In this document: in pieces, positions 348-34,505 of the stretch
How the letters are laid out: every line of letters begins with the position of its first letter
How positions within the stretch are numbered: the stretch's first letter is position 1
Source of the DNA: a phage
Reading direction: 5' to 3' (one strand)
Sequence record: PZ379602.1
Length of the DNA: 44,991 nucleotides
Made by a program: the position numbers and the translations under genes
The notes under the pieces: generated by a model
Told to the model about the DNA's origin: nothing
Databases searched by the model: none
The model's input: the letters and a program-made list of their open reading frames with translations, nothing else

Positions 348-1319
348 ATGACATTTAAAGTTTATACGAACGACGAGCTAACCAATGAAGCCTATCACGA
401 AGAGAAAGACCATATCTCTGGCTCTTCGCTGGCTGAGATTCTTGCTACTTCTCCAGCAAAATGGAAATTTAAGCAGCGCAGCAACTCAAGTGCAGCACTA
501 AAGTTTGGCACTTTGAGCCATACGATGATGCTAGAACGTGAAGTGTTCGATTCCACTTACATGCGAGCTACTGACTTTGACGAAGTGGAAGGATTGATTA
601 CTAGCCAAACAGCTTTATCGGCAGCGCTTAAAAAAGTTGGCGTTTCCGGCACGTCAGGGAAGGGTTATAACGAGCTTGTGGAGATGATGTATAAGTCTGG
701 CGAGGATTGGCCGGTTAAATGGTTAATTGAGCAGCAGGAGAGCGCTGAGGCGTTAATTAGTGGCAAGGAGCTGGTTAGTGCTAAAGATTACGACAAGGTA
801 ATCGCAATGCGAGAAGTTCTGACCAATATTCCGGCTTACGATGCGGTAATTAATTCACCAACAGCACAGAAAGAGCTGTCAATCTTTGGTGAGATTCTCG
901 GCTGCGGCGTTAAGGTTCGGCTTGACCACGTGGATGTTGTTAATGGAGTGGTTTACATTACTGACTATAAAACAACAGCAGACGCAAGCCCGAGAGGATT
1001 TGGTAAGTCAGCTTATGACCATGGTTACCTGTGTAAGATGGCACTTCAGCGCGATTTGTTTGTTAAAGCATTCAACGAAAAGCGTAAGGTTGTGGTTCGA
1101 CTTCTGGCTCAGGAGAAAACAGAGCCCTACTTACCTATGTGCTACACACTTACAGATGAGCAGCTTCGCATTGGGCGCTTACAATATTTAGAGGCTCTGG
1201 CTGTTTACAAGCAGTGCAAGGAACTTGATGATTGGCCTGGATACAGTAATGGGATTACAGAGCAAGATTTGATGATTCCTGAGTGGGTAAATAAGCAGTA
1301 TCAAGAATTACTAAAATAG
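348..1319 (+). CDS. PD-(D/E)XK-type recombination exonuclease (RecE/RecB-like)
   Basis: 323-aa ORF; VRLDHVDV...VYITDYKTT resembles a D...D/ExK nuclease core; sits directly upstream of an annealing protein and SSB. Confidence 0.6.
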   Translation: MTFKVYTNDELTNEAYHEEKDHISGSSLAEILATSPAKWKFKQRSNSSAALKFGTLSHTMMLEREVFDSTYMRATDFDEVEGLITSQTALSAALKKVGVSGTSGKGYNELVEMMYKSGEDWPVKWLIEQQESAEALISGKELVSAKDYDKVIAMREVLTNIPAYDAVINSPTAQKELSIFGEILGCGVKVRLDHVDVVNGVVYITDYKTTADASPRGFGKSAYDHGYLCKMALQRDLFVKAFNEKRKVVVRLLAQEKTEPYLPMCYTLTDEQLRIGRLQYLEALAVYKQCKELDDWPGYSNGITEQDLMIPEWVNKQYQELLK

Positions 1320-1377
1320 CACGAATTGCTAAAGACAAAATTAACTGGTGGGGTATCATTACCCCATCGAAACGAAA
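1316..1377 (+). promoter_or_regulatory. modular promoter-like element (box ATAGCACGAATTGCTAAA, hairpin, TATCAT, CATCGAAACGAAA)
   Basis: Box overlaps the TAG stop of the upstream gene; hairpin TGGGGTA-tcat-TACCCCA at 1349-1366; 22-bp spacing from TTGCTA to the -10-like hexamer. Confidence 0.55.
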
Positions 1378-1389
1378 GAGAGATGTGGA

Positions 1390-2040
1390 ATGAAAACTTC
1401 TGAGCAAAACAAGCAAGTATTGAAGGCGTTATTCGAGGCTAAATCAAAGTTTGCTAAGGCTGAAAAGTCTAAGCAGAACTCACACCTCAAGAATAAGTAC
1501 GCTACTTTAGATGATGTTTTAGCAGCTGTAGAGCCAGGATTGGCTGATAGCGGACTGGTGATGTTTCAGTCGATGATTGATGATGATGTAAGCACTCGTA
1601 TTAAGGTTGAAACAACAGTTTACCATGCAGAATCTGGAGAGTGGGTTAGTTTCCTGACCATAGTCCCAATCAGTAAGCAAGATGCTCAAGGTTATGGGTC
1701 ATCACTTACATACGCTCGCCGTTACGCAATCACAGCGGCGTTAGGTTTAAGCCAGGCAGATGATGATGGTCAGTTAGCAGTTAAAGGCATCAACTCATTC
1801 AAGAAAGACTTGGCTAAGTGCAGTACTCTTGATGACCTCCGTGATGTTTACAAAGAGGCGAAGCAGTCACTTGATTCAGCCGGCTGGTTAGTGCTTGAGC
1901 CTCACATTATCGAGCGCAAGGTAGAGATTCAGGCCAATGCAACTAGCGGCTTTAACCCAGCAAAACCTAAGCAGGTTGCACAAAAGCCTGTTCAAGAAGA
2001 AAAAGTTGAAGTACAATCTCAAGAAATCGATACATTCTAA
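1390..2040 (+). CDS. single-strand annealing protein (Erf-like recombinase), tentative
   Basis: 216-aa ORF starting at the first ATG after a GAGAG RBS; lies between nuclease and SSB; family assignment is by context and composition only. Confidence 0.5.
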   Translation: MKTSEQNKQVLKALFEAKSKFAKAEKSKQNSHLKNKYATLDDVLAAVEPGLADSGLVMFQSMIDDDVSTRIKVETTVYHAESGEWVSFLTIVPISKQDAQGYGSSLTYARRYAITAALGLSQADDDGQLAVKGINSFKKDLAKCSTLDDLRDVYKEAKQSLDSAGWLVLEPHIIERKVEIQANATSGFNPAKPKQVAQKPVQEEKVEVQSQEIDTF

Positions 2041-2080
2041 TTTAACGGGGCTTCGGCCACAGCATTAAGAGAGAAATAAA

Positions 2081-2497
2081 ATGAGTCACGTAATCACTGG
2101 TGTTATCCGTCGCGCTCCGTTCACCAAAGAAGGTCAGAATGCTAACGGAACATGGAAAATGTATGCAGTTGATTTAAGCGAGCGCTACAAGGACAAGGAT
2201 GGTCAGGTACATTACAGTAACTATCGAGCTGTCTTCTTCGCAAAAGAATCAATGCTTGCATGGTACGATGAGGCATTTCAGGAAGGTAAAATCGTTAGCG
2301 TAAGTTGCGAAACTTTGGCTGTAGATGTTCGCGATAAAGATGGTAAAACTTACGTAACCATTAACATGAACAACCCTAGACTTGAGTTTAGTCAGCGTGG
2401 CGAGGGCGGGAAGCAACAACAACAGCAACAGCAGCAACAGCAACAGCAGCAACAGCAACAGCAACAGCAGCAGTTTAACGATGACATTCCGTTCTGA
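2081..2497 (+). CDS. ssb: single-stranded DNA-binding protein
   Basis: 138 aa with OB-fold-like N-terminus, Gly/Gln-rich linker and the canonical acidic C-terminal tail DDDIPF. Confidence 0.9.
   Translation: MSHVITGVIRRAPFTKEGQNANGTWKMYAVDLSERYKDKDGQVHYSNYRAVFFAKESMLAWYDEAFQEGKIVSVSCETLAVDVRDKDGKTYVTINMNNPRLEFSQRGEGGKQQQQQQQQQQQQQQQQQQQQFNDDIPF
2414..2473 (+). repeat. (CAR)20 trinucleotide repeat encoding a 20-Gln tract in the SSB linker
   Basis: Uninterrupted CAA/CAG codons, directly visible. Confidence 0.95.
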
Positions 2498-2506
2498 TAA
2501 AGATAA

Positions 2507-2528
2507 AGCCCCTTTCGGGGCTTTTTTA
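2507..2528. terminator. rho-independent terminator between convergent SSB and tail fiber genes
   Basis: Hairpin AGCCCC-tttc-GGGGCT followed by a T run; rich in A on the other strand. Confidence 0.7.
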
Positions 2529-33229: not shown

Positions 33230-33239
33230 AAGGTTGCAA

Positions 33240-33725
33240 ATGAAAGAGTTCTTAAATTCTCTTTACGATTATCGCGATGGTCAAATCTTTCATAAAGGAG
33301 GTTCAAAGCCATGTGGGTATGGAAAGCCTAACGGATACATTCAAACTTACGTCTCAAAGACTGGTAAGAAGTATGTTCACAGGATTATTTGGACAATGCA
33401 TAATGGAGACATCCCAGAAGGCATGCAAATTGACCATTTAAATGGCAATAGGAGCGACAACCGCATTGAGAATTTAAGGTGCGCATCAGTAACTGAAAAT
33501 AGAAGAAATTCAGGAACGAAATATAGGTATCGTAGATTCCCTGGTGTTAATGGTGTAAACTACAATAAGCGCGATAATCTTTGGCATGCAATGATTTCTG
33601 ATAATGGCGTAGCTAAGAGCCTTGGTCATTACAAGTCATTTGTTAGTGCATGTGAAGCTAGAATTATCGCAGAAGTAAATCTTGGATACCACGTAAATCA
33701 CGCGATGCGTGATAGCGTATATTAA
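33240..33725 (+). CDS. free-standing HNH homing endonuclease with AP2-like DNA-binding domain
   Basis: HRIIWTMHNG...QIDHLNGNRSDNRIENLRCASVTENRRN is an HNH motif; C-terminal YRGV-like region; inserted between tail completion and major tail genes. Confidence 0.8.
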   Translation: MKEFLNSLYDYRDGQIFHKGGSKPCGYGKPNGYIQTYVSKTGKKYVHRIIWTMHNGDIPEGMQIDHLNGNRSDNRIENLRCASVTENRRNSGTKYRYRRFPGVNGVNYNKRDNLWHAMISDNGVAKSLGHYKSFVSACEARIIAEVNLGYHVNHAMRDSVY

Positions 33726-33734
33726 CTTAACTCT

Positions 33735-34412
33735 TTGAATTGGAGGTGTATTATTGCCCATCTCAGCAATGGCACTCAGGTCTTCGTAGAAGGCACTAGG
33801 GGAGCTGCTATCGACGTAACCGCAATTTCCAACGCGGTTAATCCTGTTTTAACTTTGTCCAGCGTTGCAGATATTGCACGCGGTGACTACCTGTTGTTTA
33901 CCAGCTCCGCTTCAACTCTGCTGGCTGATAAGCAAGTTCGCGTTACCGCAGTGTCTGGTTCAACCGTAACTGTTGAAGGTATTGACACCTCCAGCACCAC
34001 CAAGTTCCCGGCCGGTTTAACTGGTGAAGTGGTTAAGATTCTTAGCTGGTTTGAGGTTCCTTGCGTTCAGGACGTATCCACTGACGGCGGCGAACAGCAG
34101 TTCGTTAACTTCCAGTGTTTATCCGATGACCGTGAGCAACAGATTCCAACTTATAAATCTGCGGTAACTAATACCTACACTTTCGCGCACGAATACACCA
34201 ACCCGATATATCCGATTCTGCGTAACTATGACGAAGCTGGTACTGTTGTTGCTATCCGTCTGTTCGTACCTCGCGCTAGTGAGATGCGTCTTCAGTCTGG
34301 CACTATCGCTTTCAACGACACGCCGAGCATTGGTGTTAACGAAATCGAAACGGTATCCATTGCGGTATCTATTCGCGGCAGGCTGAGTTCTGTAGCTTCT
34401 GAACTGGCATAA
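33735..34412 (+). CDS. major tail protein (start codon uncertain)
   Basis: Thr/Ser/Val-rich 225-codon frame; no in-frame ATG near the GGAGG RBS at 33742-33746. Confidence 0.55.
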   Translation: MNWRCIIAHLSNGTQVFVEGTRGAAIDVTAISNAVNPVLTLSSVADIARGDYLLFTSSASTLLADKQVRVTAVSGSTVTVEGIDTSSTTKFPAGLTGEVVKILSWFEVPCVQDVSTDGGEQQFVNFQCLSDDREQQIPTYKSAVTNTYTFAHEYTNPIYPILRNYDEAGTVVAIRLFVPRASEMRLQSGTIAFNDTPSIGVNEIETVSIAVSIRGRLSSVASELA

Positions 34413-34418
34413 AAATTA

Positions 34419-34441
34419 ACCCTCTTCGGAGGGTTTTTTAT
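34419..34441 (+). terminator. rho-independent terminator after the major tail gene
   Basis: Hairpin ACCCTC-ttcg-GAGGGT followed by T6. Confidence 0.7.
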
Positions 34442-34443
34442 TG

Positions 34444-34505
34444 ATAGCACTTTTTGTTAAAGGCTAAGTCGCGGATTGCTGTATAGTTCATTCATCGAAA
34501 AGAAA
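34444..34505 (+). promoter_or_regulatory. modular promoter-like element inside the tail module (box ATAGCACTTTTTGTTAAA, TATAGT, CATCGAAAAGAAA)
   Basis: 22-bp spacing; leader box 5 nt after the hexamer. Confidence 0.5.

Follow-up and report, generated by a model that had tools for sequence, protein, structure and literature searches.

How T1-like phages, which lack a polymerase or sigma factor of their own, program the polymerase of their host is the question raised by a cassette repeated upstream of genes on both strands of sequence record PZ379602.1, a stretch of phage DNA of 44,991 nucleotides that was analyzed whole (hereafter, the window). Each cassette carries a conserved box with an inverted repeat, a spacer, a −10-like hexamer and a leader. 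The first 25 kb of the window share 92% identity with Escherichia phage ES, which is classified in the Drexlerviridae, Braunvirinae, other T1-like siphoviruses being more distant, and the window is a T1-like coliphage genome. The cassettes have the anatomy of σ70-type promoters in which the box stands where a −35 hexamer would be expected, and we consider it probable that each is read twice, namely as a box-activated σ70 promoter in DNA and as a hairpin for the upstream gene in RNA.

When the window was scanned for the box ATAGCACnnnTTGCTAAA with up to 2 mismatches, 16 copies were found vs. 0.2 expected, and the window total is 17 copies of ATAGCACnnnTTGnTAAA if a copy at 12601, from which one base is deleted, is counted. 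The exact dyad TAGCA-N5-TGCTA occurs 10 times (0.04 expected), and a weight matrix built from other genomes only scored 13 window copies above 12 bits, the shuffle maximum being −2.2. The copies are co-oriented with genes throughout, and the distance from the start of the box to the first ATG or GTG picked by the scan is 62–103 nt. The spacer between box and hexamer is 22 bp in 12 of the 17 copies, 21 bp in one, 23 bp in three and 24 bp in an orphan copy. All 15 copies listed in an earlier note on this DNA, which was made from the letters alone, are present where it had placed them, except that its minus-strand coordinates are the low ends of boxes that run from 6137 to 6120, 17153 to 17136, 17932 to 17915, and 18552 to 18535, and that 22322 should read 22321. 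Its list was incomplete, however, as it missed copies at 5078 (+) and 8034 (+).

That the box would be conserved in related phage genomes was borne out from T1 to Klebsiella weberviruses and a Pantoea myovirus. With up to 3 mismatches, T1 has 25 boxes (1.7 by chance) and ACG-M12 has 22; with up to 2 mismatches, there are 20 in Rtp, 19 in ES and 17–19 in two Klebsiella weberviruses and a hanrivervirus. Pantoea phage vB_PagM_AAM37 (hereafter, AAM37), a myovirus of the genus Dibbivirus outside the Drexlerviridae, carries seven boxes (32330-46400), which have a 22-bp spacer, a GC-rich hairpin adjoining TATTAT or TAATAT, a T-rich tail and a different leader. AAM37 and the T1-like phages share RecE, Erf, the helicase, a helix-turn-helix (HTH) protein, the primase, the VRR-NUC nuclease, the terminase and head genes.

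The element is not new with this phage, and the box has already been published as a family-wide repeat. In the re-annotation of phage TLS (German, Kropinski et al., 2024, PMC11447400), the only paper found when the literature was searched for the box, 21 places are given for a direct repeat of 21 nt, aaATAGCACnnnTTGnTAAAA, which follows the direction of transcription ~76 nt before start codons and is likewise seen in T1, Rtp and Rogue1. It was proposed there that the repeat might serve as a stoperator, an enhancer-binding site or a UP element; only three canonical σ70 promoters and no RNA polymerase or sigma gene were found in TLS, and the tables of that paper keep the repeats separate from promoters (PMC11447400). 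The TLS direct repeats (DR1-18) agree with the boxes described here in the sequence aaATAGCACnnnTTGnTAAAA, in gene co-orientation, in their intergenic site and in their G, T and A subtypes; they differ in that no 22-bp link to a −10 element, start site, leader or RNA hairpin was attached to them and that their function was left open. To this, the present analysis adds that box and −10 are linked at a fixed spacing, where transcription is predicted to start and with which leader, and that the hairpins are RNA in nature.

The boxes were analyzed in two sets, i.e., the non-redundant boxes of nine genomes (the nine-genome set) and, aligned after these, 611 non-redundant copies from 133 related loci among the matches listed by a scan of the IMG/VR database (the large set). 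The contigs among the matches listed by that scan were all 39–53 kb, T1-like in size, and the breadth of the box outside the family is not established by it. Information is near-maximal at A1 T2 A3 G4 C5 A6 C7 and at T11 T12 G13 T15 A16 A17 A18, and the ~15 near-invariant positions form two half-sites whose centers are ~10.5 bp apart. The inverted repeat TAGCA-N5-TGCTA given in the earlier note is a real dyad, with four of its five pairs symmetrically conserved, but an imperfect one: in the fifth pair G4 is invariant, but the base facing it at position 14 is mostly C (58%), otherwise T (32%) or, in 9%, A or G. The choice between C and T at position 14 follows two box subfamilies (GAA with C, TTT with T) rather than varying independently. 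Within TTGnTA, conservation of the TTG is 92–98%, any base is accepted at the fourth position and A stands at the sixth. G4, C5, C7, and G13 are conserved in 91–100%, and 5′ of −52 the sequence is uninformative. Given the modal 22-bp spacer, the box aATAGCACnnnTTGnTAAA(A) covers −51 to −33 and its dyad center (box position 9) lies at −42, which is the class II position that had been proposed for the palindrome.

In the large set, 436 of the 611 copies (71%) have their best −10-like hexamer at exactly 22 bp downstream of TTGnTA and 495 (81%) have it at 21–23 bp, whereas random anchors, for which the nine-genome set was used, gave no single position above 3%. The spacing that the earlier note had read from the window is thus also that of the relatives. 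Computed on the 495 large-set copies with a 21–23 bp spacer, the hexamer has A at −11 in 100% and T at −7 in 99.6% of cases; upstream of it, G is found at −14 in 85% and TG in 41%, the G−14 frequency being partly confounded with the GC-rich 3′ arms of hairpins. T is found at −12 in ~81% of copies. A−11 and T−7 are the bases that are flipped out by σ70, and their invariance therefore marks a −10 of the host type. Seven positions past the hexamer, the predicted +1 is A in 84%, and C precedes it at −1 in 68% of the nine-genome set. The lack of a canonical −35 was confirmed: no −35 hexamer is found at 16–18 bp in the large set, and in the nine-genome set the 17-bp position reads AAAACN or AAAGAC. 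A scan of the window for canonical −35/−10 promoters gave no enrichment (38 vs. 44.9 in shuffles), and box promoters escape standard promoter tools.

The predicted transcripts start AUCGAAACGAG, a purine-rich leader that runs ~20–35 nt into the Shine-Dalgarno sequence, and the shared leader of the earlier note does begin at the predicted +1. Its consensus holds in the Drexlerviridae (C at −1, A at +1) but is absent from the cassettes of AAM37; the leader is thus a lineage feature that is not required by box and −10. The sequence CATCGAAACGA occurs in the window 7 times with up to 1 mismatch (0.78 expected), and two of the seven matches, 24289(+) and 33205(−), are outside any element; the match at 24289 sits in coding sequence and was rejected as an element. 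Divergent operon heads, where no sense read-through is expected, also carry boxes (window 6629, T1 36444, and TLS DR11). Co-orientation with genes, a strong −10 and the lack of a −35 agree with the promoter-like modules that had been proposed, and from these sequence patterns we infer that the units would act as σ70-type, −35-less promoters with a conserved box at −42, through which they may be activated. The cassettes of the window are as follows.

1316..1377, plus strand: cassette; box 1316-1333, 22-bp spacer, −10 TATCAT 1354-1359, predicted +1 A at 1366, leader ATCGAAACGA; hairpin GGTGGGGTA/TACCCCATC around the −10; Erf-like gene downstream.
5078..5123, plus strand: orphan box GTAGCACTAATTGCTAAA with a poor −10, TATAAA, at 24 bp and without a downstream gene; aimed into the primase terminator, antisense to primase, and overlapping the start of the tail-fiber gene on the opposite strand.
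6076..6137, minus strand: cassette of the primase gene; box 6137-6120, 22-bp spacer, −10 TATAGT 6099-6094, +1 at 6087; 11-bp hairpin that includes the −10, followed by TTTATTGTTT, terminator-like in appearance.
6629..6689, plus strand: cassette of the helicase gene; box 6629-6646, 21-bp spacer, TGC followed by TATTAT 6666-6671.
8034..8096, plus strand: cassette; box ATAGCATTTATTGCTAAT, 23-bp spacer, TATATT; within the 3′ end of a LAGLIDADG homing-endonuclease open reading frame (ORF), with helicase part 2 (8137..) downstream.
10263..10324, plus strand: cassette; 22-bp spacer, TATTAT, +1 at 10313, leader ATCGAAACGA; hairpin TTGGTGAGTTG/CAACTCATCGA around the −10.
12601..12661, plus strand: cassette; box GTAGCACTTTTGTTAA with one base deleted in a T run; hairpin GCCTCAA/TTGAGGC adjoins the −10 CAAAAT; polynucleotide kinase/phosphatase gene downstream.
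13687..13748, plus strand: cassette; 22-bp spacer, hairpin GCCGGA-GTAA-TCCGGC (GNRA loop) adjoins CATAAT, +1 at 13737.
17092..17153, minus strand: cassette of the DNA helicase gene 15497..17080; 22-bp spacer, TGA followed by TATAAT; hairpin around the −10 with a T.G pair.
17871..17932, minus strand: cassette; 22-bp spacer, hairpin CGCCA-CGGA-TGGCG adjoins TATATT, predicted +1 A at 17882, leader ATCGAAACGA.
18490..18552, minus strand: cassette at the head of the leftward early operon; 23-bp spacer, CATAAT, no hairpin; partial −35 ATGACA at 17 bp.
19782..19843, plus strand: cassette; box ATAGCACTTTTTGCCTAA, 22-bp spacer, hairpin ATGCCA-TGGA-TGGCAT, TGG followed by CATAAT, predicted +1 A at 19832, leader ATCGAAACGAG.
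20293..20354, plus strand: cassette; 22-bp spacer, TGA followed by TATAGT; hairpin AAGGCCA/TGGCCTT around the −10.
20976..21037, plus strand: cassette; 22-bp spacer, hairpin TGCCGGA-GAAA-TCCGGCA (GNRA loop), CATAAT.
22321..22382, plus strand: cassette; degenerate box ACAGCACGAATAGCTAAA, 22-bp spacer, TATAAT.
26023..26085, plus strand: cassette between the large terminase gene and a virion structural protein gene; 23-bp spacer, TATAGT.
34444..34505, plus strand: cassette in the tail module; 22-bp spacer, TATAGT, leader ATCGAAAAGA; canonical terminator CCCTCTTCGGAGGGTTTTTT 5′ of the box, and no strong hairpin in the spacer.

The genes of the window match those of T1 and Rtp in content. They comprise RecE, Erf and SSB, minus-strand genes for the tail fiber, the primase and the HTH protein, genes for two helicases, for an exonuclease and for a polynucleotide kinase, a lysis cassette and many small early genes, after which come the terminase, head and tail genes. 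The position of the orphan box is kept in T1 (34902), Rtp (33762), ACG-M12 (32098), and ES (28756), and this box (window 5078-5143) could be an antisense promoter or an operator of the late tail-fiber gene. In T1, boxes are also found on the minus strand at 15069-15086 and 18833-18850, in the late head-tail region and against the late genes, where the window has no counterpart; the minus-strand repeat DR7 of TLS (15044..15024) lies at a similar coordinate. These T1 boxes could be antisense promoters or roadblocks. In ES, an extra unit of box and small gene (33924-34260) is inserted exactly at the window cassette 10263-10345, with the junction in the shared leader.

The hairpins are the second conserved layer of the cassette. 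The region from −34 to +4 has a mean folding energy of −8.1 kcal/mol, compared to −4.8 in random genome windows and −3.8 in shuffles, and strong stems are found in 65% of the copies of the large set vs. 6.8% of its shuffles. The stem sequence varies from copy to copy while complementarity is kept; stems identical to that of cassette 20293 are present in T1, Klebsiella phage KLPN4 and ES. The different GC-rich hairpin that the earlier note had seen in each spacer is therefore real, but it is neither universal nor confined to the spacer: among the 70 strong stems of the nine-genome set, 27 lie upstream of or abut the −10, 27 enclose it and 16 overlap it, and the 3′ arm of the enclosing stems falls at −6 to +3.

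Further analyses revealed that the hairpins bear the marks of RNA. Internal G.T pairs outnumber A.C pairs by 87 to 18 after related stems are clustered (p = 5e-12), whereas shuffles gave 5.6 and 6.2, respectively. Among 77 distinct tetraloop hairpins, 16 have GNRA and 6 have UNCG loops, while their reverse complements have 0 and 2. Stems are also stronger where a co-directional ORF ends at the box (−10.7 vs. −7.2 kcal/mol, p = 1e-4), and in 46 of the 84 cases of such an ending the stop codon is the TAG within ATAGCAC. The bias toward G.U over A.C, the loop bias and the strength beside ORF ends indicate selection on the sense strand, in RNA. As the predicted start lies downstream of the stems, the stems can be present only in transcripts that come from upstream. 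The earlier view of the hairpins as a DNA feature of the promoter spacer was thus not sustained.

We suggest that the hairpins would be 3′ stem-loops or leaky terminators of the upstream cistron that are nested in the promoter. For the −10-abutting stems, the next 8 nt contain 3.4 T on average, and 44% of these stems have at least 4. In the GenBank record of T1, three stems of this abutting kind carry the annotation of rho-independent terminators. Like terminators that overlap the next promoter, ~40% of the strong stems are GC-rich with a GNRA or UUCG loop and are followed by the T-rich −10 and discriminator; unlike such terminators, at least 4 T in the next 8 nt are found in only 44% of these stems. 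The −10-enclosing stems are more likely 3′ stabilizers or processing structures, a role that they would play in RNA. A terminator directly upstream of the box in place of the spacer hairpin was found at 5.2 vs. 0.6%, numbers that are too small.

The closest working analogy for the DNA layer is a class II activator site such as those of the Mor- and C-dependent promoters of phage Mu or of the lambda promoter PRM. The Mu middle and late promoters, which are served by Mor and C, have a good −10, no −35 and a ~19 bp imperfect dyad at about −52 to −33 with its center at −43.5, and Mor and C are small phage HTH dimers that serve many promoters of one temporal class. The cassettes resemble them in geometry, in the good −10, in the lack of a −35 and in the imperfect dyad upstream; they differ in that no Mor/C-family protein is found in the scanned ORFs (PHROGs was run on ~40 ORFs and Pfam on ~20 of them), the candidate binder has a Cro fold, the box is unrelated and the phage is virulent. 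Class II sites are bound by CRP or FNR at −41.5 and, on PRM, by lambda cI at −42. Shared with them are a center at −42 that overlaps the −35 region and a dyad whose half-sites are separated by one turn of the helix, but the box has conserved asymmetric flanks, and with ~20 copies per 45–50 kb genome it makes up the main promoter type. A −35-less, activator-type phage promoter with overlapping terminator-like structures is a known kind of system.

Other known systems fit less well. The MotA box of T4, (a/t)(a/t)(a/t)TGCTTtA, is centered at −30, 11–13 bp upstream of the −10. The cassettes have in common with MotA/AsiA promoters that an upstream phage box replaces the −35, and TTTGCTAAA resembles the MotA box, but a middle promoter of this type was rejected, as the TTGnTAAA half lies at −40 to −33 and the box center at −37 or −42 rather than −30; no match to the MotA/AsiA family was found among the ~40 ORFs, about half of them also compared with Pfam. 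The stoperators of mycobacteriophage L5, asymmetric repressor sites that act on elongation and are scattered through transcribed DNA without a set distance to a promoter, were rejected because of the strict 22-bp phasing with the −10 and because no repressor or lysogeny genes were seen. The box was likewise rejected as a UP element, in view of its four invariant G/C positions vs. the A/T-only nnAAAWWTWTTTTnnnAAAnnn (−59 to −38), and as a σ54 promoter (GG-N10-GC; TGGCAC-N5-TTGCW at −24/−12), as it reads AG-N8-GC instead, with the first G replaced by an invariant A (99%) and a spacing two bases short. In a comparison of the box with the consensus sequences of σ54, σ32, σ28, IHF, Fis, CRP and UP elements, none fits, and the arms of the Lrp consensus alone fit the box.

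Promoter-early stem-loop cassettes (PeSLs) were reportedly described in T4-type phages by Arbiol et al. in 2010. As in PeSLs, units of promoter and stem-loop flank small accessory genes here and match the boundaries of gene cassettes; the stem-loop is inside the promoter here, whereas it is beside the promoter in PeSLs. Breakpoints of homology between the window and seven relatives fall inside cassettes in 18 of 98 cases, compared to 4.7 expected (p = 8e-7), with intergenic position as a confounder of this comparison. The cassettes thus mark, and may mediate, the exchange of gene cassettes, much like the PeSLs of T4-type phages.

Who reads the box? The candidate and its promoter are given below.

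6134..6616, minus strand: HTH protein of 160 amino acids with a Cro fold, phrog_2856, homologue of T1 gp23.
6667..6694, minus strand: canonical σ70 promoter of the HTH gene, TTGTTA-16-TATAAT, without a box.

The structural model of the HTH protein has a predicted local distance difference test (pLDDT) score of 86.7, and a fold search assigned residues 35-95 to an all-alpha Cro fold, while Pfam gave weak Cro, YdaS and HTH_23 matches only. Its gene is a core gene, found in 831 T1-like phage records, and it encodes the sole recognizable DNA-binding regulator among the ~40 ORFs scanned. Invariance in its sequence is limited to a basic arm at the N-terminus (DKR-INGNNG-R) and to residues 96-112. 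The promoter of the HTH gene has counterparts in TLS (P57) and in T1 (TTGAAT-17-TATAAT), and gene 57 of TLS, the presumed counterpart of 6134..6616, has one of the three canonical σ70 promoters of that phage (PMC11447400). In the window, this promoter and that of the helicase face each other (6660-6700), such that the −10 elements TATTAT (6666-6671, plus strand, helicase) and TATAAT (6672-6667, minus strand, HTH gene) overlap, and the layout is conserved in the window, T1 and TLS (P57/DR11). The pair resembles a mutually exclusive switch, as the activation of either promoter would occlude its partner. The HTH protein is the best phage-encoded candidate for binding the box, and a conserved host protein is equally possible as its reader. 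That the box is so strongly conserved among phages with a protein identity of only 40–65% points to a slowly evolving reader, possibly a host protein.

The second binder named in the earlier note, an HTH-phosphoesterase at 11465..12600, proved not to be an HTH regulator; it is an SbcD/Mre11-type metallophosphoesterase, a DNA-repair exonuclease, split by a frameshift. Apart from the HTH protein, AAM37 has just one small early protein in common with the window (40% identity), encoded by 10887..11129 (80 amino acids, phrog_2817), which is a second candidate for a box-linked factor. The early operons that run leftward and rightward have ~600 bp of non-coding DNA between their heads (18560-19150), in which about eight iteron-like motifs, TTGCA(A)T or ATTGCAAT, at 18572-18664 are followed by a very AT-rich block (18826-18975). 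This stretch resembles an origin or some other control region, and the Cro-like protein could have its true target here.

Under the reading that we favor, i.e., a box-activated promoter with a nested RNA hairpin, the DNA of the cassette would be served by the host σ70 RNA polymerase, through a near-consensus −10 that often has G or TG at −14/−15. Transcription would start at the A of C-A-TCGAAACGAG and pass through a short, purine-rich and unstructured leader into the Shine-Dalgarno sequence. In place of a −35, the box would be bound by a sequence-specific protein, probably a dimer, that recruits or stabilizes RNA polymerase as class II activators do. The first to fire would be a few canonical promoters, the one of the Cro-like protein among them; the Cro-fold protein may then switch on the box promoters, ~20 of which would drive the genes for early functions, DNA metabolism and lysis, along with a few structural genes. 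The 22-bp spacer would be free of polymerase contacts and so could encode a GC-rich stem-loop in ~60–65% of the copies. This stem-loop would form in read-through transcripts from the upstream gene, whose stop codon is often inside the box, and would act as a 3′ stabilizer or as a leaky terminator with the −10 hexamer as its U-tract. Combining the cassette with the 3′ structure of the preceding message would save space in a genome that is almost without non-coding DNA.

Several points weigh against this reading. Our literature search found no mapped transcript 5′ or 3′ ends and no transcriptomes for T1-like phages. With TGn in 41% and G−14 in 85%, many copies could fire without an activator, and the box could then be an operator. 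The −10-enclosing stems average 1.0 T in the next 8 nt and would not be intrinsic terminators. Position 14 of the box is C or T in 91% of copies, which would give a G-C or G.U pair with G4 in RNA, a pattern also expected if the box itself formed a weak hairpin in RNA. As to the binder, the recognition helix of 6134..6616 (residues 66-71) is variable, with Q67 in 21 and T68 in 15 of 37 sequences, and no co-variation of this helix with the box was found, as the helix varies and the box is invariant. The AAM37 homologue lacks the invariant N-terminal arm, and the gene always lies between those of the helicase and the primase, so that its product could be a replication protein.

The reading that fares best among the alternatives, possible though not likely, is that the box is an operator of constitutive extended −10 promoters, which the unmodified host polymerase would use directly after infection, and that an early phage protein, perhaps the Cro-like one, binds the box over the −35 region and shuts the early genes off; the stoperator-like idea behind it was raised for TLS (PMC11447400). 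Given the frequencies of G−14 (85%) and TG (41%), many copies may indeed dispense with activation, the Cro fold of the putative binder is typical of repressors, the boxes stand mostly before early and DNA-metabolism genes and rarely in the structural module, and the orphan box at 5078 overlaps the start of a late gene. On the other hand, 59% of the copies have no TG and none has a −35, so that most would be weak alone, and there are almost no box-free canonical promoters for the rest of the program. An operator, moreover, needs merely to overlap the promoter, and the 22-bp phasing seen in 71% of the copies would be superfluous.

It is unlikely that a conserved host protein reads the box with Lrp as the lead, in which case most phage promoters would be tied to a global regulator of the host. 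In favor of a host protein is that the box is invariant across phages with only 40–65% identity in their proteins, including the Pantoea myovirus, which is more readily understood if the reader is a host protein nearly constant among Enterobacterales. The E. coli Lrp consensus from systematic evolution of ligands by exponential enrichment (SELEX) is yAGhAwATTwTdCTr (quoted in PMC5554404). Its arms fit the box at 10 of 10 positions, and boxes of the T type match 13 of the 15, but the center of the box fits only 1–3 of 5 positions, the invariant C7 violates the "w", the invariant flanks A0, A1, A17, and A18 are left unexplained, and with many consensus sequences compared such a match is not unlikely (rough p ~0.01). 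What also counts against Lrp is that it usually acts from upstream arrays of sites and that its activity is low in rich medium, in which growth of T1-like phages is good.

About equally unlikely is a dual-coded switch, in which a phage factor would re-tool the host polymerase for ATAGCAC and for a −35-like TTGnTA that the 22-bp spacer displaces by half a helical turn, while in RNA transcribed from upstream the same 60 nt would form a hairpin of the box together with the terminator-like hairpin and so set read-through. If true, it would be a new case of sigma appropriation in a very old model phage, with one sequence family controlling both initiation and read-through at ~20 sites.

That RNA polymerase itself reads the box seems to us improbable. 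In this reading, TTGnTA would be a −35 displaced 5 bp upstream and ATAGCAC would be contacted by alpha, either unaided or with σ region 4 remodeled by a small early phage protein, which would again be a new sigma appropriation. The conservation of TTGnTA (TTG 92–98%, free fourth position, A at the sixth) is −35-like, no convincing phage transcription factor was found, and many small early proteins of unknown function are encoded. The σ70 holoenzyme, however, tolerates spacers of 15–19 bp, so that 22 bp is half a turn out of phase. The four invariant G/C positions also separate the box from a UP element, and no AsiA, MotA or other polymerase-binding homologue was found among the ORFs covered by PHROGs (~40) and Pfam (~20).

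That the box works in RNA is very unlikely. UAGCA-N5-UGCUA would then form a boxB-like stem of 5 bp with a pentaloop that loads an antitermination factor for the following hairpin, a notion to which the pairing of G4 with C or U in 91% of copies and the RNA hairpin next downstream, sometimes terminator-like, lend themselves. A fixed 22-bp distance to the −10 would be unneeded, though, boxes are found at operon heads without upstream sense transcription, no other pair co-varies while the C/T choice follows the subfamilies, and a 5-bp A/U-rich stem is estimated, without computation, to be very weak. Least probable is that the hairpins act in DNA, with a cruciform or single-stranded hairpin, extruded by supercoiling, presenting the −10 as in N4 virion-polymerase promoters or single-strand promoters such as Frpo: many stems do enclose the −10 and have AT-rich loops, but promoters of the N4 or single-strand DNA type, in which a dedicated polymerase recognizes a DNA hairpin at a fixed position, were rejected, since the strand asymmetry (87 vs. 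18; 22 vs. 2) excludes a symmetric cruciform and points to RNA on the sense strand, the position of the stem relative to the −10 varies, A−11 is base-paired in short-loop forms, 35% of the copies lack a strong stem and no phage RNA polymerase is encoded.

Some genes next to the cassettes are broken in the window. The helicase gene, which is one ORF of ~2 kb in T1, Rtp, and AAM37, is split at 6713-9845, and the same split is found in ES. The ORFs 6713..7306 and 8137..9036 both match the N-terminal part of the AAM37 helicase, and the LAGLIDADG ORF (7350..8204) lies between them; box 8034 stands at the 3′ end of the latter, as though expression were meant to resume there for the second helicase half. 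The C-terminal part of the helicase lies in the overlapping frames 8985..9311, 9241..9582, and 9582..9845, and the exonuclease lies in two frames, 11465..12028 and 12085..12600, each being a single ORF in relatives. The broken frames and the T missing from box 12601 suggest homopolymer sequencing errors in the assembly or real pseudogenes. The only Rfam match in the whole window is a tRNA-Arg gene (anticodon CCU) at 23200-23275, directly 5′ of the small terminase gene, a location that it shares with other Braunvirinae.

T1 is one of the founding model phages and notorious for contaminating laboratories, and phages related to it are in wide use for therapy against Klebsiella and E. coli. For these phages, a published repeat becomes a precise promoter model, with the box at −42, a 22-bp spacer, a −10 and an A at +1, in which ~20 units would account for most of the early and middle transcription units and the promoter spacer would double as the RNA 3′ structure of the preceding gene. 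The search for the regulator is narrowed to one Cro-like core protein or a conserved host factor. The cassette also provides predicted promoter, leader and terminator parts for the engineering of T1-like phages, and a better annotation for several hundred related genomes.

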